Source: Schmidtea polychroa
Lineage: Eukaryota
Assembly: GCA_044892525.1 (NCBI GenBank)
Contig: CM097887.1
Coordinates: 88,824,397-88,888,396 of the forward strand
Direction of reading: 5' to 3'
DNA: 64,000 bases
In this document: positions 6,052 to 46,300 of the stretch, piece after piece
Numbering within the stretch: the stretch's first letter is position 1
How the letters are laid out: every line of letters begins with the position of its first letter
The notes under the pieces: generated by a model
Databases searched by the model: none
Told to the model about the DNA's origin: nothing
Seen by the model: only the letters and a program-made list of their open reading frames with translations
Translations under genes and position numbers: made by a program

Positions 6052-6731
6052 CTCGTTTATGTTTTTGTAGGTTTTTATTAGGTCAACCGACAGTTTTATC
6101 AGTATGTGAGGATTGGAACATCGAGGATCTAATTTTATAACGCCTGTTTCCATTGGCAAAGAAGTGAGAGTTTTATCAATTGAAGAATCGGATTTTGGAA
6201 AATTTAAGTTACCAGTTAAATTTGATTGTTTTTCAGTTAATGTCTTTGAGGAAGTAAGTGATGTAGATATATTATGAGACCGAATAAGGTTTTGTTGAGC
6301 ATTTGAAACAAAGGTATTGACATATAGCTTATCTATACCTAGATTTCCTTGGCAATAACTGAAGTCTGGATAATGATAATAAGATCCACCAACATCATCT
6401 TCGGATTTCTTTTCAAATTTCGGACTAACATAAGTAGAAATTATTGATGATAGAGATCCAGAATGATGATTGGGAGAAGCCATTTGCACTTCAGAAGAAG
6501 AGATATTTGTAATATCCATCGGCTCATTTGTATTTGCAAGATTAGCATAGATGAAATTATCTGATGATATTTCGATTCCGGTGTTGATAGCGGAAAATAT
6601 TGTTTTTGAAGCCGAATCGGTTGAATGTAAGCCTAAGACACCCTTGCGTTTTTCAATTTGATTCAATTGATCAGCTGTGACTAAATGCCCGTAAACGGGC
6701 ACATTAGTTACACCCATGGTGTGTTGTTGAC
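6052..6731 (-). CDS. Probable internal coding exon of an unidentified gene (Ser/Asn-rich)
   Basis: 230-codon open frame with raised GC in about 20% GC surroundings, bounded by TTCAG acceptor (6732) and GAG|GTATAC donor (6051). No family recognised. Confidence 0.4.
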
Positions 6732-7555
6732 CTGAATCAATTTGAAAAAAATAGTTAAATTTTTATTTCTTTGAGAATTTGTTAAATTAATAATTCAAAA
6801 ATTATTCAATTTATCAACATGAAATTAAATGACATTCGGATGTATTTTTTCATGCTATTTATAAAACTTCGAATCGAACCAATAATTAGATTTATGATTA
6901 GATTTATATTTTGCATTTATTTCGCTAATGAAATTCCTAACAATTCGAAATATGTCATTATTGTTAATCTTGCACTTTATAAAAAATAATGAATACAATT
7001 TCTGATTGACAAATATTTTTGTTATAATTAAAAATTATTTCATTTTATTAAATATATAGTTCGCAGCAAAAGACTTAAATTATAAATTAATTGTTTAACA
7101 ATTACATAATTATAAATGTGAAATAAAATAAAATTTATTAATTCTAATAAAATTAAATAAACACTCAAAATACACGTCGTAAATGTGGTTATTTTTTATG
7201 TTGATTTTGGATTTAAATGATTTTATCATCAAAATTTTATCAGTAATACATTTTCAGTAGTTTTTGAAATCGTTAGTAAAAACTTTAAAATTGTAAATGT
7301 CTATTTTCAACATGCATGTTTTATTATGGTCAAAAATATGTGTTTTCACTCAATTGGGAATGCTATTGAACTTGTAGTAGCAAATTTCAGAAGCTTGCTA
7401 AAGCAATCATGTCAATAATATCATGAAGTAAGGTGTTGGATTTTTATTGCAAAAATATATTTTAAAAAATCATGTTCTTTTATTTTTATGAAAAAATACA
7501 ATTGATATTTAATAGATTTTTTAAATATTAATCCAATTACTAATTTTTATTTATA

Positions 7556-8322
7556 CACCTAATTCTGTTTTTACACGAATTGTTTTTACACGAATTGTTT
7601 TTACACGAATTTGATTTAACACGAATTAAAAAGAATTTATTTTCTCTTTTTACATGAATTGCTTTGTTTTAACACGATTTTCAATATTCTATGGATTTTT
7701 TTTTGTTATTAATTTTTTTTATTTTCATTTTTAACAAATTATGTATACATACATTTTAACTTCGCATTATATTCTTCAGAATTCGGTTAGATTATGTCAA
7801 TTGTATGGGTATGTTTTCTCTTTGGGTGGGATTCACCGAAATATACATAAAGTAAAAACGTAATGTACTTTGAATTATCAACACAGGAGACTAGTGATAA
7901 TAATTCAAAAATAATTTCCCAAGACGATGAACAAAATAATTCGAGTGATAGCAGTGATATTGCAGTCTTACGCAAACTTATACGTGTGTCAGAAAATGAC
8001 AGTGAATAAAAATTTGTTATGTTTATATTATTTTTACTTTTTTATATTAATGCATTTCTGATATTATTTTCTATTTTCCAAATCATAATTTATTTTTTAT
8101 ATAATATATTTAATGAATTAAAATGTGTAAGCATGAAAAATAAATTCTTTTGTGAACTCTAACAAGGATTTTTTTATATTATTATTATACTTTTGCTTGT
8201 TTATTGTACTTTTGTTGCTTTTTTAGGTATGGAATCAATCTACTATTTTTCCATTTAGCCAATATCTTTTTTTACACGAATTTTTTAGGAACGTATCTAT
8301 CGTGTAAAAACAGAATTAGGTG
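7556..8322. mobile_element. Non-autonomous Tigger/pogo-like element
   Basis: Perfect TIR CACCTAATTCTGTTTTTACACGA / TCGTGTAAAAACAGAATTAGGTG, TA on both sides, subterminal TTTTTACACGAATT repeats, and an acidic transposase-tail-like remnant (SQDDEQNNSSDSSD) inside. Confidence 0.8.
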
Positions 8323-17400: not shown

Positions 17401-17801
17401 TTAGCTGTAAAGTAAGAAAGATAACGGTACATGACGAAAGGGATAAAGTTAAAGTGGTTCAGCTCTATTACATTGAATTACTTGAATAAAGACTTGTATA
17501 AAAACTTGTAAAAATCTGAGGATCTAAAGACTGAATTATACAGCGATAAAGTAAATGAAACTTTTCTAAGAGGATGGTAAAATAGGAAAATATTCAAGAG
17601 CCGGCTATCTAACAGCAAAAAAGGAAGGCACGGAGGTCCGCGGTCTGTATGATTTTTTACAAGAAGCCCCTATGGGAAAGATTATATTGTAAAATGAGTG
17701 AGGGATAATGTAATATTAAACAATTAATGTTGTTTTAATATTATGAAAATGTCGTAAAAATAGAATTTGAAAAACGTTTTGTCTTACAAGCTATCCGGGC
17801 A

Positions 17802-18510
17802 ATGGAAATCAACAAGATCATAATTGAAAATGTTGGAAAATTCGATGGCAAAAATACAGATGTGGAAGAATGGTTCGACAAACTCGAAATTACTTTGGAA
17901 GCCAAGAATGTGAAAAATGTCATGAACGTAATGCCATTTTTACTTGAAGGTCAATCTTATGCAGTTTTAAAACAGTTAAAGAAAAGCAGCACGACAATGG
18001 ATTTTTGTATGCTGAAGAAGGAATTATTGAAAACCTTCGGTATGAGCGAGCAAGAAGCTTTTACGAAACTTTTACAGAAAAAGTTATTAATGGGTGATAA
18101 CTTGGATGTCCATGTAAATGAATTAAGGTCACTGTTGGAATGTTCAGGTGATCTACTAATCCGATTTTTTGTAAATAGCTTACCAAGTGATTTGTCAAAT
18201 CAACTAAAGATGTCAACAGCGTCAACAATGAATGAGTTAGTCGCTCAAGCAAAGAAAATCGCAAGTCATCAAATTTATGACAATGAAACGGTTGCAGTAG
18301 TAGTACCAAGATCAGATAGTGGAAGACAAGCCAATCGAAAATGCTATATATGCAATAGTGCTAATCATGTGGTAAGATAGTGTCCAGAAAGACGCAATAT
18401 CAGATGTGCAAAATGCGGTATTATGGGACATATTTCAAGGTTTTACAAGTCGGGAAAAGATCATGGGGCTAGACACAATGTGGAGTCGGGTGTGGCCCCA
18501 AAAATTGTGA
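17802..18510 (+). pseudogene. gag: gag of small Gypsy (capsid plus two CCHC-like knuckles, nonsense codon at 18378)
   Basis: KFDGKNTDVEEWFDKLE capsid start; CYICNSANHVVR*C and CAKCGIMGHISR knuckles. G GGA AAA slippery heptamer at 18452-18458 shifts -1 into the protease frame. Confidence 0.75.
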
Positions 18511-18514
18511 ATAT

Positions 18515-21088
18515 GTGAGACTCCTAAAAGTAAATGGTGATGTAAAAGCATGTTTAGTTGATTCGGGCAGCACTACCACTATAGTAAAAGGAAATCCACG
18601 AAAATCTATGACTGCGGTAGCGATGCTTGATGGTTCAATCATATATGCTGAGCGAAGTAAAGTTGATATATGGGTTGGAGATAAGTTATTTAATATTGAT
18701 TGTTTAATACACCCGAAACTAGTATCCAATTATGATGTAATTTAATAAGTGAATGCTATTAATAGGTTTGGTGGAGTACGATTGAATAAAAAAGCCATAT
18801 TCGGTTGTGAAGAAGCATCTTGTCACGTAGCGTGCTCTAGTAGTGGTATGTCAGAAATATTGAAGGAAAATTTCTCTGCGAGATTTGAAAACGAGAAATG
18901 GATTGTCAAATGGGATTGGAAGTCAGAGCCGCCAAAATATCTACCTAATAGAAATTCAAACTTTTATGATAATTTTAGTAAGGATCAGGAGACAATGCGT
19001 ATATTGAATTCTTGGATATCTAACAGCTATCTAGTTGATTACGACGAGAAAACAATGGGCAAACCGATCGGATCAGTACCTATTTATGGTACAATTCAGT
19101 TAAATAGAGCGGAAGTGCGTCCAGTATTTGACTTTAGGGGTATCAATAAATATATTGATGTATATAGTGGAAATGTAGATATCTGTTCTGAAAAATTACG
19201 ATGATGGAGATGTTTAAGTAAAGAATTTGCAATGTTAGATTTATCTGATGCATATATGCAAATACACGTGGATAAAAGCATGTGGCGATATCAATCTTGT
19301 ATGGTTAATGGGAAGAAATATGCGCTTACGAGAATGGGATTTGGATTGAATATCGCACCAACGATAATGACAGAGATTGTGAATAAAGTATTGAACAACA
19401 ATGAATCAATCAAGAATAGTACAAGTTCATACATAGACGATATATTCGTAGATGAATCTAAAGTTAAAGCAAGTAAAGTAAGTGCAGAAATGCGTAAATT
19501 TGGTTTGATATGTAAAGAAGAAGAAAAGGTCAAGGATACTCTCAGTGTAAGAGTATTAGGTATTGATGTATTTCGAAAGAATAATGAACTGGTTTAGAAA
19601 CAATGGTTGCGGCCAGCTTGCTCATATATCAAGAGGCTATCCAGTGGAAATTGGGATGATTCAATAGAAAATCATATCGTTGACAAAGTAAAATGGTTAT
19701 TAGAAAAAGTGAATGAAAGAGATCCATCGTCAGGTATTTGGAGTGTTCCCAGCAATCAGACAGGCATAATTTGGTGCGATGCAAGTTCGATCGCCATTGG
19801 AATTGTATTAGAAATGGAAGGTTCAGTGGTTGAAGATGCGTGTTGGTTGCCGAAACCTGATGGTTCAAGACACATTAATTTGGTGGAAATAGAAGCGATT
19901 GTGAAGGGTATAAATTTATGTATTAAATGGAATCTAAAGTACATCAAAATTAAATCCGATAGTAAATCAGTTGTGTGTTGGGTTAACAGCATATTATCAA
20001 GCGACAGAAAAATACATACAAAAGCAAATTCAGAGTTGTTAATACGACGAAGGCTGGAGCTTTTAAAAGATCTAGCGATTGAGTATGAACTTAAAATGGA
20101 CATTGAGTTTGTATCTACAGAAAATAACAAGGCTGATGTATTAACGAGAGTACCAGCCAACTGGATGATTATTAAAAAAGAAGTCGCAGATCTAGGCAAT
20201 CAAAAAAGCTCGAAAGATGTGTTATTAGAGATTCACAAGACCTGCCATGTAAGGAAAAATCGTATGCGATTCTTAGTATCGGAAGCGGGGCTACTAAATG
20301 TGGATAATGAGATCTCAGAAATAATGGCAAGTTGTAATCAATGCCTATCAATTGACCCAGCGCCAGTAAAGTGGGAGAAAGGTGAACTAAGCTGTGATGA
20401 AAATTGGTGCCATTTAGCAATTGATGTAGCTAAATTTGCTAAAGATAAATATTTAACAATTATTGATTGTGGACCATCGAGATATGCAATTTGAAAGAAA
20501 ATTAAGAATGTAAATGTAGAAGAGATATGTAATGCTTTAAATGAAGTGATATATGAAAGAGGAGCTCAAAGTGAAATATTATTAGATAATTACTTATCTT
20601 TTAGATCTAGAAAATTTCAAGAATTAGCAGATAAATGGAATGTTGAGTTGGTATTTAGAACAGTGAACCGTCCAGGGGGAAACGGGATCATTGAACGCAG
20701 CCATCGGACAATCAAATCGCTAGCAGCTAGGTCCTCAGGAACAATCGCAGAAGCTGTGTACTGGTTCAACAATACGCCAAACAACAATAATATTTGTCCA
20801 TCTAGAGCCATATTTAGATATAATCCAAAGCTGAATCTGCCAAGCTACAATAAAAAAGAGATAATAATCGAAGCAAAATATTCTGCTGGTGACCCAGTAT
20901 GGATAAAACCGAATTTGAATCAAAAATGCACGGAAAGATGGAAAGATGGACATATCATTAAACCATTATCAAATACAAAATTTTTAGTCAGATGTAATGG
21001 ATACGATATGCTGCGACACGTGGGCGATATTAGAAAAAGAGTTGTTAAAGATTCAGATGAATCTGGTGGAGATGTAGGAATAATGTAA
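18515..21088 (+). pseudogene. pol: pol of small Gypsy (PR-RT-RH-IN), one frame broken by several stops
   Basis: ORF pieces 18515-18745, 18749-19204, 19232-19597, 19607-20494 and 20546-21088 are all in the same frame and carry the catalytic motifs in Gypsy order. Confidence 0.85.
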
Positions 21089-22573: not shown

Positions 22574-23576
22574 TGTTGAGGATGCCTAAATAATAATTCA
22601 TGAAGAAATAAATAAAATTACCTGGGGGAAGATCGCCATGACAAACGGGACGATCTATAGAGACTCAGAAAAGAAAACGGAAGTGAAAATAAATCAAAAA
22701 TGAGAAAGAGAAAGGAAATAAAAGTTATCAAACAGAAAAATAAAATCAAGGTCAGTACTAATTAATTAGTACAAAAAGGAAAAGGAATTTTGAAATCAGG
22801 GAAAAAGGAAAACAACAATATCCTTATCTCGACAGCTTGCTGATGATAATAGAATTGATGGGAGAAGGCGGCCAAACAAGAAAGGAAAAAGGGAAAAAAC
22901 AACCTGACAGCGGTCAGAGATAAAAATGGGATAGTCGGGGAAAGCAGGAGAAGGAAAGTGGGAAAACACTTGATTATCTGGAGTGCCACAAGAGAAGCGA
23001 ACTATATAAGGGAAAACTGGTGAACATGAAATTACAACAAAAGAGAGAGACAAGGTGACGCGAAATTGGAAACGCTCTGGAAGACGAATTGAGATACGAT
23101 TTGAGATACGATTTGAGAAAATAATTATTGAAGAAAATCAGACGTCGGACGAAACGTTGTTGGACAAACGATTGTCAAGATAATTGTAAAGGAAATAATA
23201 GAGGAAAATAATTGGAGAAAAGTTGAAGAGAAAAATTAGTTGAATAATAAAACGAAAAGAAGTTATTGATTATTTGAATAAAGTTTGAAAGAAAGTCAAA
23301 GAAAACAACCAGCTCAAAATCCCAGCTTAGAAACCAATCAGTAATTTGTGATCTTTTAATCCGGTGTTATACACAAGTGCTATTCCTCACCGAGTGTTGC
23401 AATAAGCACTGTATAGTCACCCAACAGAGTGTTGAATTTATCGTCAGTGTCAAGTGAAAGTTTATTTGTGATTATCAATAAAGATTTCTATTGTCAAGTG
23501 TTATTTGTGAATTATATAAAGACACGCTTGGAGTCAGAGTAACATTAAATTTTGTCACCAACTCAATAACCCAACA
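22574..23576 (+). repeat. 5' LTR of large Gypsy element
   Basis: Matches 36401-37403; one substitution seen by eye (G22912 vs T36739). TATA-like TATATAA at 23003-23009; AATAAA at 23477-23482. Confidence 0.95.
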
Positions 23577-23581
23577 TATTT

Positions 23582-23599
23582 TGGTGAGCCCGACGTGAT
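23582..23599 (+). promoter_or_regulatory. Primer binding site complementary to tRNA-Trp 3' end
   Basis: TGGTGAGCCCGACGTGAT, 17/18 identical to TGGTGACCCCGACGTGAT (complement of the vertebrate tRNA-Trp 3' end); 5 nt after the LTR. Confidence 0.85.
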
Positions 23600-23798: not shown

Positions 23799-26597
23799 AT
23801 GAGCAGTGAAGATTTACCAGTTTCAGTTATTAAAGAAAATAATGATTTTGCCAGTTGTCAAAGATTGCCAGTAGAGCAATATGGAGGAGATCCAATTATT
23901 TTTGTTGATTTTATGAGCGATTACTATATGTATGCAACGGCTTATGGATGGTCTCAAGCAATAATGATTCAAAGATTACCCTTATATCTTAAAGGAGCTG
24001 CTAGAGAGGTTTGGCAACAAATCGACAGGAAAACAATCGGCAATGATTGGGCCAAATTAAAAGATGCATTGGCTGCTAAACTTATTGGAGGAGATATAAA
24101 GAGGTTAATGCGTCAGAAATTTTATAATAGAGTTCAAAATCCAAATGAAACAGTGAGCGAATATGCATATCATTTATCGACCCTTGCCAGCAAATCCTTT
24201 GAAGAAGATTCGAAACAACCAGGATTAGCCCAACAGATGCAGGAACTGATTCAAGATCAATTTTTGTCCGGAGTAAATAAAGAAATAAAAACGGCATTAT
24301 GTTTTGTAGAGTATGACAATTTCGACGAACTAGTTAAAAAAGCAATGAAAATCGAATTGAATCTAAAGAGCTCTAAAAATAAATCTGAGGTATTTGCAAT
24401 AATTCCAGTACAAAGAGAGAGATCAGTAACCTCAACCCAAGACAATTGGGAATCAGGAAATAGATTTCAACGATTAAAGAGCCCATCACCAAAATGGAGA
24501 AACGATAATAATATGAACAGAGCAAGCCAAAATTCACCAGGCACTGAGAGAGCTCAAGTTATTCAGTGTGATATTTGTAAGAAAATTGGCCATTATACAA
24601 ATCAATGTTGGTTTAAAAATAATTCTGAAAGAGTACCCAGGAGATTGAGTCCAGATTGGCAAAGAGATAATGGAGGAACGAATTTTCGGAGAGCAATTCC
24701 TAATGTGAAGTCAAATTTTAATGAAGTACAATGTTATCGCTGTGGTAGAAAAGGACATGTTTCTAGAAATTGTTTTTCAAGATCAAGATCACCATCAATG
24801 TCACCATCACCACAAAGAGATAATGTGAATTTAAATGGACAAATTCAATGTCATTTATGCAGAAATTACGGACATATTGCAAGATCTTGTCCCAGGAATT
24901 CCGATAAATTTCAAAAACCGATTTTGAAACGAACAATTAGATTTCAGGATGAAAACCAATCAAAGAATAATGTTGCTTATGTTCAAAAAGATAAATTTAG
25001 AGAAAAAATTGAGAACGATGTCAAACAATTGAATCAAAAATTGAATAAATTGATGGCGAAATTTGAATCAGATGATGAAACAGATTCTCATATGATGACA
25101 AGACGAAAATTGAAGACGGATCAATCAAAACTTGATGATATTACAAGAAACAGAGTTAAAACGGATATGCAAAGTGAAAAGAGTACAATACTTATTGCTA
25201 AGGTCAGGAAATTAGTAACAGAACCTGATGCGAATTCTCAGAAATTGACAGAAGTATTGATGAAGCTAACGGAAATACCGTTGAGTTTAACCAAAATTAA
25301 AACTGTTATTAAACTTTGTACTGAATGTTTTGCAGCAAGTGTGGAAAAGCGAGATGTATTTGAAAAGTATATGAAAGAATTTGGCCAAACTTTACGAAAA
25401 TTCAAATGGTTAGACCCGATATTTATTAAAACAAATACATTAAACGACACCAAATCCGAGTATCAAGTTGAAGCATACGGAAAAATACGCGAGTTGAAAA
25501 GAGAAATAATGTACAAATGTGAAGTTTGGGCAGTAGAACTTGGATTTATGGGCCGAGTGTTGGAAGACGACGAATTTTTGATAGATTGTGGATTAATCCC
25601 CGGCGTTGAAAATGAGATACAAATAGTGAGCATGATTACCAATGAAAAACCAGTCAAATATGATGTCAATAAAATTAAATTTGAATTAAATGAAGCATTG
25701 ATCAAGGGAGATACAGGTGATATTATTGATAAATTGAATAATATTTTGAATTTAGAATTTGAAGTGGAAGATAAATTGAAAATTTTAGATTGTGTCAGAC
25801 CCTATGTAAATTATGATAATGAATATAGTGAAATGATAAAAAAGCTTATTCATAAATTTGGACAAGAATTTAGAGAAAAAGGAGTTTATAATGAGCCATT
25901 TGTGATAATGTTAAAAATAAATGACCAAGAAGTGGAATGTACCAGCGAGCATTGGTGTACGAAATTGAGTACAATACGACGGAGAGCAGCAGAAATTATG
26001 GGCAGTGATGGAATAATTGTATTGAAATACAAAGGTTTTGAGTTAGATGATGATGAGTACTTATTTGATTGTGGCTGTGTACCACGAAAATTTGATGAAA
26101 ATGGATCTTTGGCGAATCAGGAAACATTTATTAATGAGTTAGTTGCGATGAAACAATTTGAATTAAAGGAGGTAGAAGAAAGCTTTAAAATGGAATTACC
26201 AAACTGGAAAAATGAGATAATGAGTAATGATGATGAGATGCACGATGAACAAGAAATGAAAAGAGATGAAATAGAAAATGAAACTGTAGAGATTATTATT
26301 AAAAATGAGATGAAGACTGAAAAAGATGAAATAGAAAATGAAGCGGAACAGATTATTGTTGAAAATGAAATGAGAACTGAAGTTCAAAATGAGGCATATA
26401 TGACCAAAATGACGATTGATAATGATATTAAAGAAAAACAATGCAGAAATTTGTATGAAATAAGATGTAAAATAATACAGAAATTTCAAGAGGAAAAAGA
26501 TCAGAAAGACTCAAAGGAAACTGAGAAAATTGTACGTGCTCTAGTAAACGAATTAATAGAGAGAATTAATAGAGAGAATAGAGAGAATGCAAGTTGA
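23799..26597 (+). CDS. gag: Gag (capsid plus three CCHC zinc knuckles) with a long C-terminal extension holding two ubiquitin-like domains
   Basis: First ATG at 23799. Capsid motifs (LPLYLKGAAREVW, RVQNPNETVSEY); knuckles CDICKKIGHYTNQC, CYRCGRKGHVSRNC, CHLCRNYGHIARSC; Ubl-like segments at about 25419-25628 and 25899-26150. Confidence 0.85.
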   Translation: MSSEDLPVSVIKENNDFASCQRLPVEQYGGDPIIFVDFMSDYYMYATAYGWSQAIMIQRLPLYLKGAAREVWQQIDRKTIGNDWAKLKDALAAKLIGGDIKRLMRQKFYNRVQNPNETVSEYAYHLSTLASKSFEEDSKQPGLAQQMQELIQDQFLSGVNKEIKTALCFVEYDNFDELVKKAMKIELNLKSSKNKSEVFAIIPVQRERSVTSTQDNWESGNRFQRLKSPSPKWRNDNNMNRASQNSPGTERAQVIQCDICKKIGHYTNQCWFKNNSERVPRRLSPDWQRDNGGTNFRRAIPNVKSNFNEVQCYRCGRKGHVSRNCFSRSRSPSMSPSPQRDNVNLNGQIQCHLCRNYGHIARSCPRNSDKFQKPILKRTIRFQDENQSKNNVAYVQKDKFREKIENDVKQLNQKLNKLMAKFESDDETDSHMMTRRKLKTDQSKLDDITRNRVKTDMQSEKSTILIAKVRKLVTEPDANSQKLTEVLMKLTEIPLSLTKIKTVIKLCTECFAASVEKRDVFEKYMKEFGQTLRKFKWLDPIFIKTNTLNDTKSEYQVEAYGKIRELKREIMYKCEVWAVELGFMGRVLEDDEFLIDCGLIPGVENEIQIVSMITNEKPVKYDVNKIKFELNEALIKGDTGDIIDKLNNILNLEFEVEDKLKILDCVRPYVNYDNEYSEMIKKLIHKFGQEFREKGVYNEPFVIMLKINDQEVECTSEHWCTKLSTIRRRAAEIMGSDGIIVLKYKGFELDDDEYLFDCGCVPRKFDENGSLANQETFINELVAMKQFELKEVEESFKMELPNWKNEIMSNDDEMHDEQEMKRDEIENETVEIIIKNEMKTEKDEIENEAEQIIVENEMRTEVQNEAYMTKMTIDNDIKEKQCRNLYEIRCKIIQKFQEEKDQKDSKETEKIVRALVNELIERINRENRENAS

Positions 26598-29025
26598 GAA
26601 ATATGTGAGGAAAATTGCAAAGAAAATTAAAAAGAGATTTTGTGTAGTGTTAAAACAAGCAAAAGAAAGTATGGAATTTTGCGATGATAATGTGATAACT
26701 GAGATGAGGACAAGGAAAATAGATAGAGATATGGTATTAACAATTATGAGTTATATTTTGTTAGAAATCGGAACCTATGATTGCTCAGAAATGGAAAAAC
26801 ATGAGGAAATAATTAAAATGGCGAGTAAAGTTTTACATAAACATGTTGGCAAATGGATAAAAGAGAATGGAGGTTGGGAAAAGCTGATTAAACAAAAAAT
26901 AAAACCAGTTGTGGAATTGAGAGAAAATTATGAAGGGGTCTTGAAACGAAACACCATGAAATTTCCATTTTTAATGTTTATGATTATGATACTATGTGCA
27001 ATTATAACTCAAACGACGTCTTTAATCGCTTACGACTGTTCTCAAACAAAAATGGGAAAGGTATATTCGATGGTAGATATGACAGAATGTCCAGATGCAC
27101 ATCCACTGAGTCTAACAGTGGAAAAGGATGTAAAATACTATGTATATCAAGAGTCTGGATTTAGACATGCCACGGTAAGAGAGTGTATTGTGAAGAGAAC
27201 AAGTTTTGTATTCTATTGTGGCAAATGGAGTCACACATCATTAATTAAAATGTATGCAATACCAAGGCCAGTTGATGTAAATCCAGAAAATTGCATGGCT
27301 GCATTCCAGACCGGAGAATTGAAAATAAGTCCCGAAATTAAATTGAAGGCTAAATTAAATCATGCAATACGAGAAACGATTATTGAAAAAGGGGTGATAA
27401 AGGCCAATGGTGATTGTGAAGGCGAACCATATAAGATGAATGGGCAAATTATTGACAAAGTTGTTGTGATGGAGGAATATTTAACAGAATTGAGAGAATT
27501 TAAAGGAGCTTTTGACGATGATACAGGCAAATTACAAACCCATCCATTTTGTAATATGAAACAGACCAGTTGTCAAACAGGAGAATCGATTTTGGTATAT
27601 GAAGTAAAGAAAAATTTGTGTAACTTGATACATTTGAAATCAATGAGTTTCAGTGAAATGAGTGGCGAACAATTGAGAAATAGACCGGAAAGTCTGAATG
27701 TGGAAGCAAAGCCGGATATGACAGTTAAAATTACGCGATTGAGAAAGAGAAAAACTCCAGTAGTTCTGATGTCAACTTTATTGGACGATGGGATGAGATT
27801 CATACGAAAACGAGTAGTGGATAAGTGCGGCCAAACGGTGTATGAGACGAATTATAAAGGGATTTATGTGTCCAAGAAAAGAGTCGAGGAAGCTCAAATT
27901 AAAATACATAGTACAGATATTAAATTGACAAATTATTTCAATAACAAAATAGATTATCTATTCCACTACAGCCAAAGCATTGTGGAAAATATTTATCGAG
28001 AAATGATATTAAACGATTGTAAATTAAACAAAGAAATATTACGAAATAGAATAGCGATGGCGGTCACAAATCCGAATTTAGTAGCACCTATGTTAATATC
28101 GGAAAACGGTGTATTTGCAAGGATATTTGGTGAAGCGTTGTATAGCTACAAATGCAATGAAATTTCCGTACAAATTACAAAACACGAACAATGCACAAAT
28201 GAATTACAAGTGAGTGTCAATGGTAAACTCAGATTTATGGAACCAATAACTCGGATATTGTTAGAGGAAGACGTAAAACCAAAGGTTTTAAAATGCAACA
28301 GATTACTCGCACCATTATATTGATTAACGTCAGATTCATGGATATCGTTACCAGATCACAAAGGAGTAAAAACTCCAGAAAAGCTAGAATTAACAAAGCT
28401 TGAGTATTTAATAAATTTCACATCATTGGATAAATTAGCACAAACCGGATTGTATTCTCAAGAAGATGTTGAGGAAGCTAGAATGAATTTGTTATTTCCA
28501 TCGAAAAAGGAACGAGTAATAACTGAAATGATTGATACTATACTACCAGGAGGTGAAGGAAAAGTAAACTATGATTATCTATTAACACCAGATCATTATA
28601 AAAAGGCAACGTATAATACGATGAAAAAGATATGGGGAAAATTTATGTTTTTAGGACAAGCGTGTGCGGGATTGATTGGAATTTATGTTATGATAGTGAT
28701 GACAAAGGTAATAATATCTCAAATATTAACTACACACCAATTATATGTTATATCTGGTTGGTCATGGAAATTGATTATTGGATGCATACCGTTCTTGGCC
28801 AGATTTCTGATTACCAAGCATCAATACAAAGAAATGGGGAAAGTAAAATCACGACTAACTAAAAGAAATATTGATTCAAGTTCGAGCAATGGAAGTGGAT
28901 ATGGGGATGATGATAATGATAAACTAAGAGTACCCCCTATGTATTATTATAAAAATAATAAAACAAAAATAAATGATATAAAGGAAAAATCTAAATCTAT
29001 GAGTTTATTACATACAGTACCATAG
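26587..29025 (+). CDS. env: ORF2: N-terminal Bcl-2-like domain, then a signal sequence and chuvirus-like class III fusion glycoprotein; one in-frame TGA at 28321-28323
   Basis: BH2-like WIKENGGWEKL; hydrophobic MKFPFLMFMIMILCAIITQTTS; LIAYDC..YSMVD..ECP, YCGKWSH, CNRLLAPLY, LAQTGLYS, and C-terminal membrane region WGKFMFLGQACAGLIG...GWSWKLI. The frame stays open after the TGA. Confidence 0.8.
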
Positions 29026-29180
29026 GCAAGTGGAACAGACACTTTCAGTCGATTATGTATTCCAAAAACCTTTATTCCAACAGCACCAATATATCCAGTG
29101 GAAAAACTAAAGGAAATGAGGCCAATTGAGAATATTGAATTAACAAATGAGCAAATTATACCGACAAGTGCAGAAATTGA

Positions 29181-29760
29181 AAGGAGAAATATGCTGGGAT
29201 TACCAGGAAATTATGCGCTAATGACAGTCGGAAACAGAGCAGACAACCAAGAATATGGGTACAAGTAAATAAACATAGAGTTGAAGCATTATTAGACTCA
29301 GGTTCGAGTAATACGATATTATCAGACGAAGTGTTGAATTCAGATGAGAAAGCACAAATGAGAAGTACAGAAGAAGTGGTACGATCAATGACAAAATCCA
29401 AACTAAATATTATTGGGCAAATTAGAGTCAAGTTCAATATTGGAAATCAGGAAATTGCTCATGATGTTCTAATAATTCAAAATTGTCCAGTGGAATGCTT
29501 AGTGGGTATGGATGTTTTAGCACAGCTAGAAGGAGTTTGTCTTGATTTGAAAACGGGAAATTTGATTATGGGAGAAACGGGGAAAGCCATTCATGAAACA
29601 GGCGACGTGTTTCTAAACCAAACATTAAGAGTTCCACCTCAAAGTGAAGTTATTTGTTATGTGAATACAATGGGAGTTCCAGATGATGAATTTATATTTC
29701 AACCAAGTGAAACATTAATCAAAAAGTATGATATCCCCATGTACGACGAACTAGTAAGTC
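29181..29760 (+). CDS. pro: Retropepsin-type aspartic protease region (no ATG upstream of the active site)
   Basis: Frame opens at 29181; PRIWVQVNKHRVEALLDSGSSNTILS and CLVGMDVL motifs. The reading frame shifts to the pol frame near 29760. Confidence 0.85.
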
Positions 29761-32718
29761 CAAGACCAATTAATTCCTGTTTATATTACCAACAATAATG
29801 ATAAAGAAATAGCATTAAGACCAAAAACGAAATTGGGAAAGTTGACAAAAATCTTAAAAATGGACAATAAAAGATTACCAAAAAATATAAAAATATACAA
29901 AGAACCTCAAGTAAACAGTAAAGATTTGACCCAAGAGAAAATACAAAAATTTATGAAATTATTGAAAAAATATCAAGACGTCTTTGCAAAACATGAATAT
30001 GATCTAGGAGTTACTCATGTAATTGAGCACGAAATTCCATTAATGGATGAAACTCTAATCAAACTACGACCATACAGAATTCCTTATGCACATCAAGAGG
30101 AAAGTGATAGACAAATAAAGGCGATGAAGGATTTCAATATCATCAGAGACAGTTTTTCACCATTTTCTTCATCTATTGTTGTTGTTAAGAAAAAAGACGG
30201 TGAAATAAGATTTTGTATCGATTATCGAAAATTGAACCAAGTTACAAGAAAGGATACATATCCAATCCCAGTTCCTCAGGAAATGTTCGACAAAATGGGA
30301 GAAGCTCAATATTTTACTGTTATTGATTTAAATAAAGGGTATAATCAATTCAAAGTTAAAGAATCAGATAAAGGAAAAACAGCATTCTCAGATGGAAAAG
30401 GTTTGTATGAATTTAATGTTTTACCATTTGGTTTGAAAGGTGCACCAGCAACATTTCAAAGAGGAATGAATTTTGTACTGAGAGATATCCCACATGCTTT
30501 AGTGTACATAGATGATATTATAATATTTTCAAGTGATTTTGAGGAGCATATGAGAGATGTGGAGACAGTATTTAAACGGCTTAGAGAAGCAAGTCTCAAA
30601 ATCAAACCATCAAAATGTGAATGGGGTAAGTCAGAGGTAGTATATGTTGGACATATTATCTCACGGAGGGGTTTACAACCAAATCCAGATAATGTTAAGA
30701 AAATCCAAGAATATCCTATTCCAAAAAATGTTGATGACGTCAGACAGTTTCTCGGGTTAGCAAGTTATTATAGAAAATTTATTAGAAACTTTGCACATAT
30801 TGCTCAACCATTAACAATGTTATTAAAGAAAACTCTTAAATTTACGTGGAATAAAGCTCAACAAGATGCTTTCGAAATTCTCAAACAAAAACTTATAATT
30901 AATCCAATATTGCGATGCCCAGATTTTACAAAGATGTTCATATTAATGACAGATGCAAGTGGTTTTGCATTAGGGGCAGTGTTGGGGCAAAAGGTAGAAG
31001 GAGAAAAAGATCATGTCATTGCATATGCTAGCCGATCACTGAAGCCCCATGAGAAAAATTATTCAACAATTGAAAAAGAAACTTTAGCTTTGGTATATGG
31101 GATAACAACATTTCGACAATATCTAGTGGGTCCGAAATTTATTGTTTATACAGATCATAATCCGTTACAATGGTTAATGAAACATCGAGATGCAGCAAGC
31201 AAATTGATAAGGTGGTCTATAGCCTTACAAGAATATGATTTTGAAATAAAATACAGAACAGGAAAATCAAACGCTAACGCAGATGCATTGTCAAGGATCT
31301 CAAATGAGGAAATTAGTGTTGACCAGGAAGAAATAAGTTTGAGAGATACAGTATTCGCAGTAATCAAAGCAGTAAACAATATGTCAGAGCTGCAACGAGA
31401 TCAGGAAATGGATGATGAACTAAAACAAATAATCAAACATACAGTGATAATGAAAAAGGACAGTGAATTAAAACAATTAATTGAGGAAAAGCATAAATAT
31501 GTAATCCACAAAGGTATATTAAAGTATATTAAAGGTGATGAATTATTAATAGCTGTCCCAACTAAGCATCGAAATACGTTATTGTTACAATATCATGATG
31601 GAGCATTGGGTGGACATTTATCAGCAAGAAAAACAATGTCACGATTAAAACTAAAGTATTTTTGGAATACAATGGACCAACATGTAAAGTATTGGTGTAA
31701 TACGTGCAAAATTTGTCTAACTCGAAAGAATACAGGAAAGAAAATAAAAGTCCCACTAAAACCAATGCCAATACCAGCCGCGCCAATGGAATTTTCAGCA
31801 ATGGATATTATCGGGCCCTTACCCGAAACTACAAATGGAAATAAATATATTATAGTATTTTGTGATTATTTAACAAAATGGCCAGAGGCGTACGCAATAC
31901 CAAATCAAAAAGCGGAAACAGTTGCTCAAATATTTGTCGAAAAGATTATATTCAGATATGGTGCTCCAAAGAAATTGTTAACAGATCAAGGAACAAATTT
32001 TCAAAGTGATTTATTTAAATCCATTACCGAATTATTTGGTATTTATAAATTAAATACATCACCATATCACCCGCAAACAGACAGGCTAGTAGAAAGATTT
32101 AATGGTACTTTAATCAATATGATCTCATCGTATGTAAATCGGAAACAAAAAGATTGGGACTTATTTATCAAACCATGTCTGTTTGCTTATCGAAATGCAG
32201 TTAACGAGAGTACGGGTGAAACACCTTTTTATTTAATGTATTTGAGACGAAACAATATGCCAATTGACCTGAAATTTCAACCCCCAACGTCTCAATACAT
32301 GGACGTTCCAAATTATAAAGTAATAATGCAGGAACGATTACAATCTGCATGGACTCGTGCGGGGTTAAAAATTAAGTATCGTCAAGAACAATATAAAGAA
32401 AACTACGACAAAAAGGCGCATGAGCACGGAATAAAAATCGGAGATTCGGTATATTTAAACAGGCCGGAGCCAGTAAAGGGCCTATCAATAAAATTACAAA
32501 GACCATTCAAGGGTCCATACACAGTATGTGATGTTACAGCAACTAATTTGAAGTTACGTCCAATGAATAACAAAAGAGCAGAAACAATTATAGTTCATGC
32601 TAATCGATGTAAGAAAGTATCCGAAATAGAGTATCAATTACGATCAAAACAAAAGAAACTTAATGATGAAAAAATTATTCAAAAAAAATTTCAAAAAAAC
32701 CCTACGCCATTGGGATAT
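29761..32718 (+). CDS. pol: Pol: reverse transcriptase, RNase H, integrase
   Basis: RFCIDYRKLN, LPFGLKGAPATFQR, YIDD (30505-30516), TDASG, YSTIEKE, TDHNPL, HDGALGGH..CNTC, MDIIGP, TDQG, VERFN, GPY motif. The frame continues into the next feature. Confidence 0.95.
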
Positions 32719-33900
32719 ATGAACAGAGTTTTATTTATAACTACAGTCTTAATAAATGTCATAGCAAATGCAAGTGGAATAACAATGAATCTACCATATG
32801 CAGTAGAAAAAGTACCCTTATTGGATAAAATTTATATATATTCAACATTTACTAGTATTGTGTGGACATATCACTGTGAAATATCAGAACAAATAGAAGT
32901 TAGTAATTTATTGAACCCTTTCGAACCATTTGTTACGTTGAATTATGAGAAAAGCATATATGTAGCTCGTCGATTGACAGCAAATTACAAATATCCTTGG
33001 ACCATTAAACAATATACGCATCAAACAAATACTACTCAAAATATTTATAACCTTATACAAATTAACATTTGGACAAATGAATGGAGAAATTTAGCTGAAA
33101 TTGAACCGATGATAAATGAAATTCACGTATATTGAAAAGCGGAAGAGCAACAGAAAGTCAGAATTGTTTTTCAAAACATTACGATTGAAACATTAAATAA
33201 AAGAAAATCTTTTGTTAAATACAAAAATTTACAAGAAAATCTCACTTACAGTCTTTCAATACATTATTACGAGAAACTCATTCATGACAATGGGACGTAT
33301 ATGAATAATCAATGGATAGAAGTTCAGAGTCAATATGAAGCAGTACACTTGGTTAACGAAACTAATCGAGTTCAAATAAAAATTGAGAACAATGAAATAA
33401 TTGTGTTACGCCAACCAGGCCTCAGACAAAGGGTAAATATTTTTGTAAATAATAAAATTCAGGTGGTGTTAGACGAATACCAACAAAGAGCAAAATTGAG
33501 TACCTTGAACTCAGTATCTAATCCGAAACCAAGAAATTTCGTGATCAAAATTCAATATTGCAAGCGAAAAGCAAACTCAGATCAATGGCAAGTCACTTTC
33601 ATTGAAAATAGACATATTCATCTTCCTCATACTCAACCCATTGGAGAAATAATAAGTGATCATAATCTAACATTAACCGTAAAACCCTCATGGTCAAAAA
33701 ACGAAAGCTTTTCACTAAACTGTAAAGAAAAATCATCTCATAACAATTGTGTCGAATTGTTATTCATATGTATCATTGTGGCAATACCAAGCGGTATCCT
33801 ACTCATCTACCTTGTTCTAATCTTGAGAAGTAATGACAATGACAATTCTATCTGCGACTATCAATATTCTGAGTCGCAGCAGTTAGAGACATGGGTGTAG
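32719..33900 (+). CDS. Predicted type I membrane glycoprotein, in frame with integrase; in-frame TGA at 33133-33135
   Basis: Signal-like MNRVLFITTVLINVIANA; at least 7 N-x-S/T sequons; FN3-like stretch IHVY*K...KYKNLQENLTYSLSI; TM LLFICIIVAIPSGILLIYLVLIL; short tail. The frame is open on both sides of the TGA. Confidence 0.65.
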
Positions 33901-34068: not shown

Positions 34069-35574
34069 ATGGGAGAGTTGGGATATAAGAGTATGGTTGT
34101 TAAAAAGAAGAAAACGAAGAAAAACAAAGAATATCAAATGGAGAAAATCAGCAGACCAGCGAAAATATATTCACAGTATCTCAGAGAAAAAAGAAGCCGA
34201 ATAGAGAAGACATATATAATCGAAGAAAATCTGAGAATCCCAAATTGGGCAAGAACAGGCAATGAGAAAATGAGGATATGTCTAATGGAGATCGAATGGA
34301 GATCAAGAATGAAAATAGCCGAATTATTAGTGAGGAAAAGTGATGAGAATTGGGAGATCCACGTATTTAAAGGAATAGTGGAAATCATTAACAATGAAGG
34401 AACCATAACCGGAACAATGCCAAACAATTCATCATGGAAAATTGATAAAGAAACATGGCATAAACATATGCGAGCGGCGAATGGAACCGCGTGGTTAGTA
34501 TTAGAATGCCGCAGTAAAATGCCCACAAGTAACGCGGTAGAAAGAATCATCTCGATGGAAGAAGAAAATACCTTGCTCCCGATTACTGAAGAAATGTTGA
34601 AACACCGAAAGTCATTCCTGAGAAAATATTTAACCACTGAAGAAATCCAAAAAAATATAATATTCATGGATGCCGAATATGGAGTAAGTGAGGACAATAG
34701 AATGATCCCACTAGCGGTATGCCTCATCGAATATACCGGGAAAATAATCTATAATGCTTTGATAACTCCGAGAGAAAAAATAAAAAACTATGTTACACAG
34801 GTTCACGGCATTACTGAGAAAATGTCTAGGAACCAAGAAGACCAATATGAGAGCCAAAGGAAAGTTCAGGAACTAACAGCACGAAAAATATTGGTAGGAC
34901 ATGATCTACAAAATGAATTAAGGTATAGTGGAGTTAACCCAAATGATTTATGGGAAATTCGGGATCTAGCAGCAGCCCAAGCTCTAACGAAAAGGAAAAT
35001 CACAAAGAATGGGCAATGGTACAAATTGTCGATAATTGCTCAAGAAATATGCCAAATATCAATGCAAAAGGGAACGCACTCGGCAAGAGAAGATACGGAT
35101 GCAGTGAGACGAGTTTATCTGGCATTGGAAAGCGATTGGGAAGATGATATAAAAGTGCCAACACGGATATCTCACTCCCTACAAGAGTATAGAACTCGCC
35201 AACTAATGATGAATCAAAAAAGGGAATATAGTAAACTCAAAATCCCGAAAAAACCACAAGAGGAAAAAGCTGTGGAAATGCAAGAGATGGAAATAAATCT
35301 TCATTCCATCGAATCAATGAAAACCATCAAGAGATATAAAGTAACGATAACAATGGAAGAGGAATTAAAAATGGCGGGGAAAATGGAGCTTCGTATAAAG
35401 AGAATGGCAAAACGAAGACTCAAAGATATGGAAACTCAAACGGTAACTACGGAAACTTCGGTGGGAAATACAATTATCATCAACGGAGAAGAATGGAAGC
35501 TCAAAAAAATCTTAGCCACTTATCAAAGAGAAGATGAAAAGATAAAAATTACAAAGTTACCCGACAGAAGATGA
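34069..35574 (+). CDS. DEDDh 3'-5' exonuclease (REX4/ISG20-like) with an unknown N-terminal domain
   Basis: Exo I IFMDAEY (D at 34669), VTQVHGIT, Exo II ILVGHDLQNEL, IRDLA, Exo III QKGTHSAREDTDAVRRVY; Lys-rich N-terminus KKKKTKKNK. Intact 501-codon ORF. Confidence 0.85.
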   Translation: MGELGYKSMVVKKKKTKKNKEYQMEKISRPAKIYSQYLREKRSRIEKTYIIEENLRIPNWARTGNEKMRICLMEIEWRSRMKIAELLVRKSDENWEIHVFKGIVEIINNEGTITGTMPNNSSWKIDKETWHKHMRAANGTAWLVLECRSKMPTSNAVERIISMEEENTLLPITEEMLKHRKSFLRKYLTTEEIQKNIIFMDAEYGVSEDNRMIPLAVCLIEYTGKIIYNALITPREKIKNYVTQVHGITEKMSRNQEDQYESQRKVQELTARKILVGHDLQNELRYSGVNPNDLWEIRDLAAAQALTKRKITKNGQWYKLSIIAQEICQISMQKGTHSAREDTDAVRRVYLALESDWEDDIKVPTRISHSLQEYRTRQLMMNQKREYSKLKIPKKPQEEKAVEMQEMEINLHSIESMKTIKRYKVTITMEEELKMAGKMELRIKRMAKRRLKDMETQTVTTETSVGNTIIINGEEWKLKKILATYQREDEKIKITKLPDRR

Positions 35575-36400: not shown

Positions 36401-37403
36401 TGTTGAGGATGCCTAAATAATAATTCATGAAGAAATAAATAAAATTACCTGGGGGAAGATCGCCATGACAAACGGGACGATCTATAGAGACTCAGAAAAG
36501 AAAACGGAAGTGAAAATAAATCAAAAATGAGAAAGAGAAAGGAAATAAAAGTTATCAAACAGAAAAATAAAATCAAGGTCAGTACTAATTAATTAGTACA
36601 AAAAGGAAAAGGAATTTTGAAATCAGGGAAAAAGGAAAACAACAATATCCTTATCTCGACAGCTTGCTGATGATAATAGAATTGATGGGAGAAGGCGGCC
36701 AAACAAGAAAGGAAAAAGGGAAAAAACAACCTGACAGCTGTCAGAGATAAAAATGGGATAGTCGGGGAAAGCAGGAGAAGGAAAGTGGGAAAACACTTGA
36801 TTATCTGGAGTGCCACAAGAGAAGCGAACTATATAAGGGAAAACTGGTGAACATGAAATTACAACAAAAGAGAGAGACAAGGTGACGCGAAATTGGAAAC
36901 GCTCTGGAAGACGAATTGAGATACGATTTGAGATACGATTTGAGAAAATAATTATTGAAGAAAATCAGACGTCGGACGAAACGTTGTTGGACAAACGATT
37001 GTCAAGATAATTGTAAAGGAAATAATAGAGGAAAATAATTGGAGAAAAGTTGAAGAGAAAAATTAGTTGAATAATAAAACGAAAAGAAGTTATTGATTAT
37101 TTGAATAAAGTTTGAAAGAAAGTCAAAGAAAACAACCAGCTCAAAATCCCAGCTTAGAAACCAATCAGTAATTTGTGATCTTTTAATCCGGTGTTATACA
37201 CAAGTGCTATTCCTCACCGAGTGTTGCAATAAGCACTGTATAGTCACCCAACAGAGTGTTGAATTTATCGTCAGTGTCAAGTGAAAGTTTATTTGTGATT
37301 ATCAATAAAGATTTCTATTGTCAAGTGTTATTTGTGAATTATATAAAGACACGCTTGGAGTCAGAGTAACATTAAATTTTGTCACCAACTCAATAACCCA
37401 ACA
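36401..37403 (+). repeat. 3' LTR of large Gypsy element
   Basis: Copy of 22574-23576, followed by the ATTT TSD. Confidence 0.95.
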
Positions 37404-43354: not shown

Positions 43355-46300
43355 GGTGGCCCAAAAAATTGAAAGTTAAAAACTAACAACTCTCACCCTT
43401 CCAAGTTGTTCCAATTGCTATAAAAATAATTAGTGCAAAATATTTCTGCAATTTGACAATATTTAAAGGTGGCCCACTGGTGATGAAGTTTTGACATGGT
43501 GTTTCTTTTGCCGGTAATTCAGGGCGAGTTATTGGTTTGTTATATAGCAGTGACTGAGAGAGTATGGATGATTAACCTATTTAAGTGTTACTTATTTATT
43601 GGTATTTTATTGAATTTATTAGACATTCTTTGCTAATTCTCTTCTGTTTATGTTTATATTTGTTTTTCATTTTTGAGACAAAAAGTCAGCTATTACTCAC
43701 CAGTCGAGATGTAATTATGCAATCTTTGTTCTCTTCATGTATTAATAGTCAGTATTTTACTTTGCTGAATTACATGCAAAAACACATCGTTGTTGAATGC
43801 ATTTTACAATGTTACATGTACTCTTGTACTATACAGCAAATTTAAAATTTTTCAGTTGTTCATTCAATTATGCCTAGTGTTTTGCTTAACCTAATCGTCT
43901 CCACTCTCCATGTTATTGTGTTTCAGATTTAACAGAATGGAAACAAGATCTAATGATAATGTTTACTTGATTAAATCATATGTTCCTGAAATTCTTGGTG
44001 CAAAGCTGCCATCGTATTATCAGACATTTGGGTACTTTCTACACCTACATAAAGTAGAAAAAATGACTCTTCGCGAAGCCAGTAAACTGACAATCAACGT
44101 GATAATGGAGTTCTGGAAAAAAGCAAGCATTCCAACAAGAGCAGAACAGCACTGCATTCAGAAGCTTGAATCAGTCTTTTATGAATGGAAGGGTCTCCAA
44201 AAACACAAGTCGAGGTCTGGTGAAACTCACAAAAAACAGGAGCATGAATTTGTTTCTCATCTTGAAGATTTGTTCGACATAGCCCATCAGGATGCACTAA
44301 CTATCATTAGCAACCCAGAAGACAGGGCATTCCTGTTACGCCAGAGAGAAAAAGGGCGTCCAGGATCCATTGGTGTCCGGGATAAAGTTACTGAACGTAA
44401 AGCTAGAGCAGCTGGTGAACGCAAACAAGCTGAAGCAAGGCGGCGGCAAAGGTCAGTAGATGAAATGAATATCAGTGCTTGTTTGACAACTCTCGAATCA
44501 TCATCTGGTGAAGACAGTGACCATGACCAAGAGCAGATTGTCTTGTGTGATGATGAATATAAACCTGTTGCATCCTCATCAACAGATCCTGCTGACTGTA
44601 TCACAAAGCCAGTGCCAAAGAAAGCTAAGACTGATGTATTGACTCCTGGGGTAATGACAGCTCTGGACAGAACACAGACATCCTCCAGAAATGCTGTTTA
44701 TGTGTTGTGTGAAACAGCATCCAGCCTTGGTCACAATGTTGATTCCCTCAACATCAGCAGGAACTCAATCCACCGAGCCAGGTGTAAAGCTAGAACAATT
44801 GCAGCATCACAGCTGAAATCAGAATTTCTATCTGTAAACCATCTGACTGTCCACTGGGATGGAAAGTTATTGGAAGATTTGACAACTAGAGAACACGTCG
44901 ACAGGTTACCAATTCTCATCTCAAGTGTTGGTTGTGAACAGCTGCTTGCAGTTCCAAAACTGTCATCTGGAACTGGTGAATCCCAAGCTACTGCCGTGGT
45001 CAACGAGATAAAGCAACGGGCATCGAAAAGCAGGTTGTGACTTTGTGTTTTGACACAACAAGTTCAAACACTGGTGATAAGCAAGGTGCTTGTGTCTTAA
45101 TTCAACAGATGTTGGCCAAAGATCTCCTATACTTGGCCTGTCGTCATCACATCATGGAACTTATTGTCGGTGCAGCATTTGACCAAATGCTACGAGGTTC
45201 ATCAAGCCCTGACATATCAATATTCAAAAGATTCAAGGAGCACTGGAAATTCATAGATCGTGACAACTACCAGCCGGCAGAAACGGATCCATTCATCGAC
45301 AATCTCATTGCTAATAGTCGAAATGAATTATTGGAATTTGCTCGCATGCAACTTGAAGTGCAGCAGCCACGAGATGATTACCGGGAGTTCCTGGAACTGT
45401 CTATGATTTACCTTGGCCAGGCTCCTTCCAGGGGGATTCACTTTCAGTCTCCAGGTGCAATGCATCGATCAAGGTGGTTGGCTAAAGTGCTGTACAGTAT
45501 CAAGATGTGGCTTTTCAGAGCACAATTCAAGATGACACAGAGTGAGCTGAAGGGAATCACTGCTGTTGCTGCATTTGGTGTGCTTGTCTATCTCAGAGTA
45601 TGGATAACAGCACCTCTGGCAATAAATGCACCATTGAATGATTTCCTGTTGATGAGACAGCTCCTTGAATACCCCGATGTAAACATTTCATCTGTAACCA
45701 GCAAAAAGCTGGGACTGCATCTGTGGTATATTTTAGAAGAGCTGGTAACACTCGCTCTGTTTGACTCCAGAGTTCCAGCTGAAACCAAGAAGCTGATGCT
45801 TGCAGCCATGGAGAATGCTGCACCTGAGCATCCACCTAAACGTCCCAGAGTGGAAACATCAGCCTTCACAAACAGCAAGGGTCTCGAACAGTTCTGCACA
45901 GCCAATTCAATGACCATGTTTCGTCTTCTGCAGTTACAGACGTCATTTATGTCAAAAGATCCATCAGAATGGGATGAGGATGAAACATACCCATGTGCAC
46001 TGAGAACTGTTAAAGGATTGGCTGTTGTGAATGACAGAGCTGAGAGAGGGGTAGCCCTCATTCAGGACTACAATAAAAAGCTAACCAAGGATGAGGAACA
46101 GCTTCAATTCATGTTGCATGTCGTTAGCGAACATCGCCGGCTGTTTCCAGACTGCAGCAAATTCGGTCTCATGATGGCCATGTCATCTAAGCCAACGACA
46201 CCTTAACTATCAAACTCGGACTGATCTTAATTAGTAGTTACGACTAAAAACTGTGTTCAATCACCATGTTTTCAATTTCCATGTTCCATGCACTGTTGTT

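Follow-up and report, generated by a model that had tools for sequence, protein, structure and literature searches.

A gypsy element related to Burro, located in a 64,000-nucleotide stretch of the Schmidtea polychroa genome (contig CM097887.1; the whole stretch is called the window below), encodes a tandemly duplicated module of two domains, a block of helices followed by a ubiquitin-like domain (Ubl). The two units, each of about 155 amino acids, are encoded at 25173–26153, within the open reading frame (ORF) 23799–26597. A first-pass annotation of the window had located the repeat at 25179–26150 (amino acids 461–784 of this ORF), and its positions were accurate. It had also called the repeat a Gag extension in "ORF1". 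The end of this ORF at 26597 is an artefact of a frame change in the window copy, which is broken and divided over several frames. In sibling copies gag, the module, Bcl-2, env, protease and reverse transcriptase (RT) form one continuous frame, and open frames of a related family reach about 3,440 amino acids. Because the siblings keep one frame from gag through RT, the module is an internal part of a gag-Bcl2-env-pol polyprotein, between the nucleocapsid and the Bcl-2-like domain.

Local alignment of unit 1 with unit 2 gave a score of 94 over 90 columns, which 0 of 2,000 shuffles reached (maximum 70). The Ubl parts supply most of this pairwise signal. Aligned alone, the two Ubls score 74 (shuffle maximum 52); the helical blocks alone are not significantly similar in pairwise alignment (score 33, reached by 98 of 2,000 shuffles). 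Profile comparison, four unit-1 rows against four unit-2 rows, recovers both parts: the E-value is 5e-5 between the helical blocks and 5e-11 between the Ubls, and falls to 5e-13 when whole units are compared. Controls (reversed, and 15 column-shuffled) scored at most 15.6, against 28–81 for the real pairs. Unit 1 matches the Pfam ubiquitin family (PF00240) at an E-value of 1e-4, under the curated cut-off, and unit 2 alone has zero matches in the Pfam scan. The motifs FGQxxR and LxDDE(F/Y)LxDCG, listed in the first-pass annotation as common to both units, are conserved over 18 close copies. The "ND" listed with them is a chance agreement, present in unit 1 of one of the 18. No GG follows either Ubl, the only GG pairs of the ORF being at amino acids 29, 97 and 292. 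Both Ubls thus lack the C-terminal di-glycine past the last strand that a conjugatable modifier has, and the earlier view of them as integral and not conjugatable holds.

AlphaFold2, supplied with the 18-row unit alignment, predicts unit 1 as four helices (residues 2–16, 22–33, 39–55 and 57–75) followed by a beta-grasp fold (pLDDT 92.4, pTM 0.86). The high pTM suggests that the helical block and the Ubl are packed in a fixed orientation as one rigid unit. The predicted Ubl resembles the BAG6 Ubl in Foldseek (E 1e-5) and ubiquitin-family structures in VIA (Z 12.4, root-mean-square deviation (rmsd) 1.3). BAG6, ubiquilin, ISG15, ubiquitin and SUMO match the beta-grasp about equally, so that the donor of the Ubl cannot be named. 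Among the matches listed, no solved or viral structure spans both domains (query TM ≤0.45). The Ubl of unit 2 is probably a beta-grasp as well, by profile homology to Ubl 1. Structure prediction and comparison of the two halves were among the checks that the first-pass annotation had proposed. Both agree with its description of a tandem duplication (score 94; profile E 5e-13) in which each Ubl is preceded by a helical block (profile E 5e-5 between the blocks; four predicted helices). Its alignment with ubiquitin had found the right fold, but the register that equated IFIKT with IFVKT is off by two residues; superposition sets unit residue 83 on ubiquitin Met1.

The module is present in several families, but in different numbers of units. 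A profile search of 1.84 billion representative proteins returned 25 proteins, of which 12 have the module, 12 resemble polyubiquitin and one is a leucine-rich repeat protein. Four of the 12 module-type proteins are gag-type with one unit and two (P0001 and P0002) carry the tandem. Among the families of the genome, two units are present in A (that of the window), B, C and E, and one unit in D. A Burro1-type polyprotein has three unit matches, at about amino acids 342–445, 523–614 and 986–1094 (best scores 30, 32 and 44), where control scores were at most 17, both in windows away from the matches and in 40 of 40 reversed windows. A MATH domain lies between units in this frame, and a BIR-RING ORF lies downstream. 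Word-based homologue searches with the tandem, a host TFIIS N-terminal domain (TND) and the unit alignment found nothing, which is weak evidence as these searches are length-limited. In all families examined, the nucleocapsid precedes the module and the inferred membrane anchor follows it. One relative, P0016, has a single frame of 2,296 amino acids that joins env and several aspartyl-protease domains in tandem to one helix-Ubl unit.

A tree of the units was calculated from 17 of the 18 rows, with fragment P0011 left out. Unit 1 of families A, B, C and E, together with fragment P0006, forms one clade (support 100/99), and unit 2 of the same families forms another (97/94). Deeper branches are weak. 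Because the unit-1 rows and unit-2 rows fall into separate supported clades, the two-unit form goes back to one duplication older than the split of families A, B, C and E. Unit 1 has the longer branch. Between families, the proportion of nonsynonymous differences (pN) in the module is 0.26–0.49 and that of synonymous differences (pS) is 0.61–0.97, with synonymous sites near saturation; among the 18 close copies pN/pS is 0.38–0.54. Identity between families is 53–55% for Ubl 2, which is similar to the protease, 39–46% for Ubl 1 and 23–41% for the helical blocks. The core regions are at 73–76% (env), 85–92% (RT) and 67–76% (capsid). By these values the module is under purifying selection and functional, but less constrained than the core genes.

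The helical block was also modelled by itself, from unit 2 (AlphaFold2, pLDDT 86). Foldseek ranks the TFIIS LW domain first (probability 0.92), and the LEDGF TND aligns over 75 of 79 residues (probability 0.96, TM 0.71, rmsd 2.2). VIA ranks the yeast LW domain first (Z 9.7, 77 aligned residues, rmsd 2.6), and TNDs are nine of the 50 VIA rows listed, as end-to-end matches. The Foldseek E-values of these TND matches are 0.4–1.6, their VIA Z-scores (8–9.7) fall short of the level below which the tool advises caution with helical bundles, and HEAT/ARM pairs tie with them in VIA (PI3K-gamma p84/p101, Z 9.5–9.7). TNDs have five helices (PMC9987994), against four in both helical-block models; the third helix may cover two TND helices. 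Alignment of the helical block to seven host TND sequences with hhalign gave a probability of 1–2%. PF08711 and PF11467 are not among the listed Pfam matches of the units, and in genome scans with these two families no locus was recognised as a module copy. A hidden Markov model search of PDB sequences with the helical profile found nothing under E 0.02 and no TND, and P0005 alone gave no LEDGF match. An ESM Atlas search with helical block 1 returned low-recognition matches only. A host LEDGF-like locus (L094) keeps the register of the unit profile when aligned to it, but the E-value is 0.09. Retroviral matrix, death-fold and Ddi1 helical domains are absent among the fold matches listed, where absence does not exclude them. 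Judged from the models, the block is best described as a putative HEAT-pair/TND-like bundle and is not classed as a TND. Separately, IWS1-like TND genes are locally expanded in the genome: L075–L088 and L093 (G000:C2:164-172 Mb and C31) account for about 15 of the 26 PF08711 matches.

Proteasome-shuttle Ubls such as those of Rad23, Dsk2 and ubiquilin carry a hydrophobic patch of the Leu8/Ile44/Val70 type. Equivalent residues in the units were assigned by the structural register of the VIA superposition. In the 18 close copies the position of Ile44 is taken by G/K/R in unit 1 and by K/T/V/A in unit 2, and unit 2 does not conserve the Leu8-equivalent; a shuttle-type patch is therefore lacking. 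Comparison of sibling copies had been proposed in the first-pass annotation; of the motifs it listed, FGQxxR and LxDDE(F/Y)LxDCG are kept in these copies, and "ND" is not. Most single-unit relatives have a hydrophobic Ile44-equivalent (V/I/L/M). The Pfam scan found no UBA or UBX domain in the ORF at E≤1. The invariant positions of the unit are Gly71 in helix 4 and Glu134 and Gly140 in the DDEYLxDCG loop, and Arg75 is present in 17 of 18 rows. Late-domain motifs occur elsewhere in the polyprotein. In families A, B and E, PTAP and YPxxxL are found not in Gag but after the env membrane segment, with 66–71 amino acids separating them from the protease motif. Family C has only YPxxxL of these motifs, and in family D and the Burro1 type the motif scan found no late-domain motif near the protease.

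We tentatively read the module as a putative non-enzymatic adaptor or decoy that would bind, through non-canonical surfaces, host proteins acting in ubiquitin-dependent signalling of cell death or antiviral defence, and we give this reading somewhat less than an even chance. The same lineage has collected Bcl-2-like, TRAF-type MATH, TRAF zinc finger plus MATH, and BIR-RING (inhibitor of apoptosis, IAP) cargo, which is the reason for placing the adaptor in cell death or defence. Gly71, Arg75, Glu134 and Gly140 probably hold helix 4 against the Ubl rather than contact the host. Since the invariant residues read as interdomain contacts, host binding would take place through the variable outer surfaces. 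The Gag-module-Bcl2 part would be cytosolic, and tied to the endoplasmic reticulum by the env signal segment until the element protease frees it. The module would be made one-to-one with Gag, and hence be abundant enough to titrate a partner. The duplication may have increased avidity or brought in another partner, and unit 1 would be the faster to diverge. Divergence faster than that of env or RT is the pattern that an accessory host-facing domain would be expected to leave. Three points weigh against the adaptor reading. The tie to cell-death signalling is guilt by neighbourhood, a loosely constrained structural spacer would also explain the fast divergence, and the canonical patch may have served in the ancestral unit, since the single-unit relatives are mostly hydrophobic at the Ile44-equivalent.

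The spacer just mentioned would be a matrix-like structure, bridging the capsid and nucleocapsid to the membrane-anchored Bcl-2/env part during assembly with no host factor involved. It agrees with the constant position of the module, with its one-to-one ratio to Gag, and with a Gag that begins with a capsid-like region and has no N-terminal matrix domain in the Pfam scan. We regard it as unlikely, because the number of units varies from one to three, a MATH domain is inserted between units in the Burro1 type, the module diverges much faster than the capsid (67–76% identity), and a retroviral matrix protein is absent among the fold matches listed. The resemblance of the helical block to TNDs leads to another reading, in which the block is a captured TFIIS-N/LEDGF-like domain, putatively binding TND-interacting motifs or the element integrase and so steering transcription or integration. 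TNDs head both the Foldseek and the VIA rankings, with a TM of 0.71 for LEDGF, and the likeness had been spotted from sequence ahead of folding. However, the E-values, the tie with HEAT/ARM pairs, the four modelled helices against five (PMC9987994) and the fruitless profile comparison and family scans all tell against it, the inferred topology is that of a cytosolic precursor, and we consider it improbable. If the helical half were a TND, the elements would bring their own adaptor for elongation factors or integrase tethering in one to three copies, where lentiviruses borrow LEDGF, and it would be a retroelement-encoded counterpart of a host factor guiding HIV integration.

The first-pass annotation had suggested a proteasome/p97 adaptor, a decoy or an aid to budding. 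A canonical Ubl of the first or last kind, either an adaptor for proteasome/p97 or an in-built ubiquitin standing in for late domains, is in our estimate distinctly improbable. The closest solved Ubls do include the shuttle factors BAG6, ubiquilin/Dsk2 and Rad23, but as the Z-scores of all Ubl folds differ by no more than about 1, this ranking is uninformative. Fused to Gag, a ubiquitin that lacks GG is able to drive budding, but this depends on Leu8 and Ile44 (PMC2958808). The V/I/L/M residues of the single-unit relatives suit a canonical surface; the G/K/R and K/T/V/A residues of the 18 close copies do not. Loss of the Ile44-equivalent and the presence of PTAP/YPxxxL elsewhere in the polyprotein weaken the canonical proteasome and budding ideas, to which the missing UBA or UBX domain adds. 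A decoy or adaptor that uses another surface is the reading we prefer. A folding or processing aid, with the Ubl as a solubility tag or a cleavage-boundary mark in a very long polyprotein, is in our view very improbable. Ubiquitin insertions are known in viral polyproteins (structures from bovine viral diarrhoea virus are among the matches), and an unrelated Bel/Pao-type element of the same genome fuses a GG-ending ubiquitin to gag. Yet without GG the units have no host deubiquitinase site, and the helical block, which a mere tag would not need, is always co-retained. As a conserved, repeated module that lacks the usual ubiquitin-binding patch, the helix-Ubl unit offers a compact construct that can be expressed for structural and pull-down studies, and the search for partners moves away from proteasome receptors.

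The element carrying the module is 14,830 bp from long terminal repeat (LTR) to LTR, and all its features are on the forward strand. Contigs of four sequencing runs, which may be RNA or DNA, cover it. ATTT stands before the 5' LTR (22574–23576, 1,003 bp), and behind this LTR comes a primer-binding site that starts with TGG at 23582. This site, TGGTGAGCCCGACGTGAT at 23582–23599, looks like the 3' end of a tRNA-Trp. The 3' LTR (36401–37403) has a polypurine tract on its 5' side and ATTT on its 3' side. The LTRs differ by one mismatch in 1,003 bp and are flanked by this 4-bp target-site duplication, so the insertion is young. With its LTRs, primer-binding site, polypurine tract, gag and the pol order protease, RT, RNase H and integrase, and with a class III env that lies between gag and pol and shares their frame (PF24664; continuous sibling frames), the element belongs to the env-bearing gypsy elements of GAG-ENV-POL type.

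The gag part (23799–24890) has a capsid-like region (PF03732, E 2e-8) and three CCHC zinc knuckles (PF00098, E 8e-8; knuckles by reading the sequence). Unit 1 consists of a helical block at 25173–25412 (amino acids 459–538 of the ORF), with four helices predicted by AlphaFold2 and homology to block 2 and the single-unit relatives, and of a GG-less beta-grasp Ubl at 25413–25634 (PF00240, Foldseek match to the BAG6 Ubl, VIA), with G/K/R at the Ile44-equivalent. The helical block of unit 2 (25656–25892), also with four predicted helices, is the one modelled alone and likened to HEAT pairs and TNDs by Foldseek and VIA. Its Ubl (25893–26153), assigned by profile homology to Ubl 1, has a loop insertion preceding the last strand and is the more conserved copy. 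Next comes a linker of low complexity (26154–26438), acidic in composition (31 D/E against 12 K/R) and containing a 60-nt tandem repeat. The Pfam-matched part of the Bcl-2-like domain (26692–26877; PF00452, E 8e-5, under the cut-off) is in a different frame in the window copy, whereas in siblings it is in frame with the units. At the boundary with env lies a hydrophobic segment (26971–27027; 19-residue hydropathy 2.1), the probable env signal peptide and membrane anchor. A hydropathy scan found this segment in families A–E, and it is under threshold in the Burro1-type frame. At 26692–27027, the hydrophobic segment after the Bcl-2-like domain could double as tail anchor and env signal peptide. 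The env region (27028–28878) encodes a class III, Monjiviricetes-type fusion glycoprotein (PF24664, E 4e-54 and 5e-16), interrupted in the window copy by a stop at 28321–28323. The late-domain-like PTAP and YPxxxL motifs, identified by motif scan, are in the gap between env and protease (29077–29109). Protease (LDSG), RT, RNase H and integrase (29181–33135) are split over separate frames in the window copy, and the pol frame ends with a hydrophobic segment and about 100 amino acids without a Pfam match. Two accessory frames follow, one at 33136–33900 of unassigned family, with a C-terminal hydrophobic stretch and no Pfam match at E≤1, and one at 34069–35574 with a DEDD-type exonuclease domain (PF00929, E 3e-5, over the cut-off).

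Other features were noted in the window and in related elements. Fragments of another retroelement lie at 17802–20494, with weak DUF7041 gag-like and RNase H-like matches, and a 79-nt direct repeat is present at 17701 and 21076. A GC-richer block (44%) at 43910–46206 contains two ORFs (376 and 365 amino acids) with no good Pfam match. In the accessory ORFs of a Burro1-type element (L066:3752–5188, 5332–6507 and 6585–7667, forward strand), TRAF zinc fingers are combined with MATH and BIR with RING, and there is a weak KH-like match to N4BP1. The multi-copy Bel/Pao-type element has two near-canonical ubiquitin copies before gag (L039:2464–6513 (-), L040:3674–7861 (+), L041:4046–7582 (+) and L042–L046). 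The first ubiquitin ends in LRLRGG in 8 of 8 loci and the second in GG in 7 of 8. This is an independent capture of ubiquitin, which host deubiquitinases might cleave. Some copies of the element have captured host sequence upstream, presumably phosphatase-like in L040.

Parts of this architecture are already published. Burro has a Ubi2/SUMO-like motif between MATH and BCL-2 with env in frame, and Burro/GYPSM1, the giant gypsy of planarians, resembles the window element in combining a three-CCHC Gag, a Ubl, a Bcl-2-like domain and a mononegavirus-like env in one polyprotein (PMC6431247). The gag-env-pol layout is described for Smed_errantivirus_1 and _2, which are HSV/gB-type GAG-ENV-POL elements with the gene order and the length of about 14.8 kb of the window element; their env rows resemble the window env by eye only (PMC13524379). 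The word "ubiquitin" is absent from the main text and seven supplements consulted for that paper. In the available text of the Burro review one Ubi2/SUMO-like motif is named, and neither a helical partner nor a repeat (PMC6431247). In the literature we found neither a TND-like fold nor repetition of the helix-Ubl unit described for such elements, although Grohme 2018 and Lee 2026 may annotate more. The repeated helix-Ubl module, in one to three copies across relatives, is apparently the new part. Burro1 and Burro4 are derepressed upon smedwi-2 RNAi (PMC8532177). Protection of stem cells has been reported for the Burro1 IAP, and Burro-type elements are thus among the few transposons with cargo reported as beneficial to the host (as cited in PMC13465017).

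Among known folds, the best-ranked for the helical block are the TFIIS TND/LW domains, including the LEDGF integrase-binding domain, yet these have five helices against four and no significant sequence match (PMC9987994). The Ubls of BAG6, ubiquilin/Dsk2, Rad23 and ISG15 superpose on that of unit 1 with an rmsd of 1.3–1.8 over 72–76 residues, at 19–28% identity. Unlike them, the window Ubls have no Ile44 patch and no UBA/UBX partner, and are fused to a four-helix block. They are also divergent and without GG, whereas the Bel/Pao-type element has a near-canonical, GG-ending ubiquitin. The window element, at 14.8 kb, is shorter than Burro/GYPSM1, which exceeds 30 kb with MATH, BIR and ankyrin cargo that the Pfam scan did not find in the window element. 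The Burro Ubl has so far been a one-line annotation; it can now be described as half of a conserved two-domain module maintained by selection, repeated one to three times and without the usual ubiquitin-binding patch.

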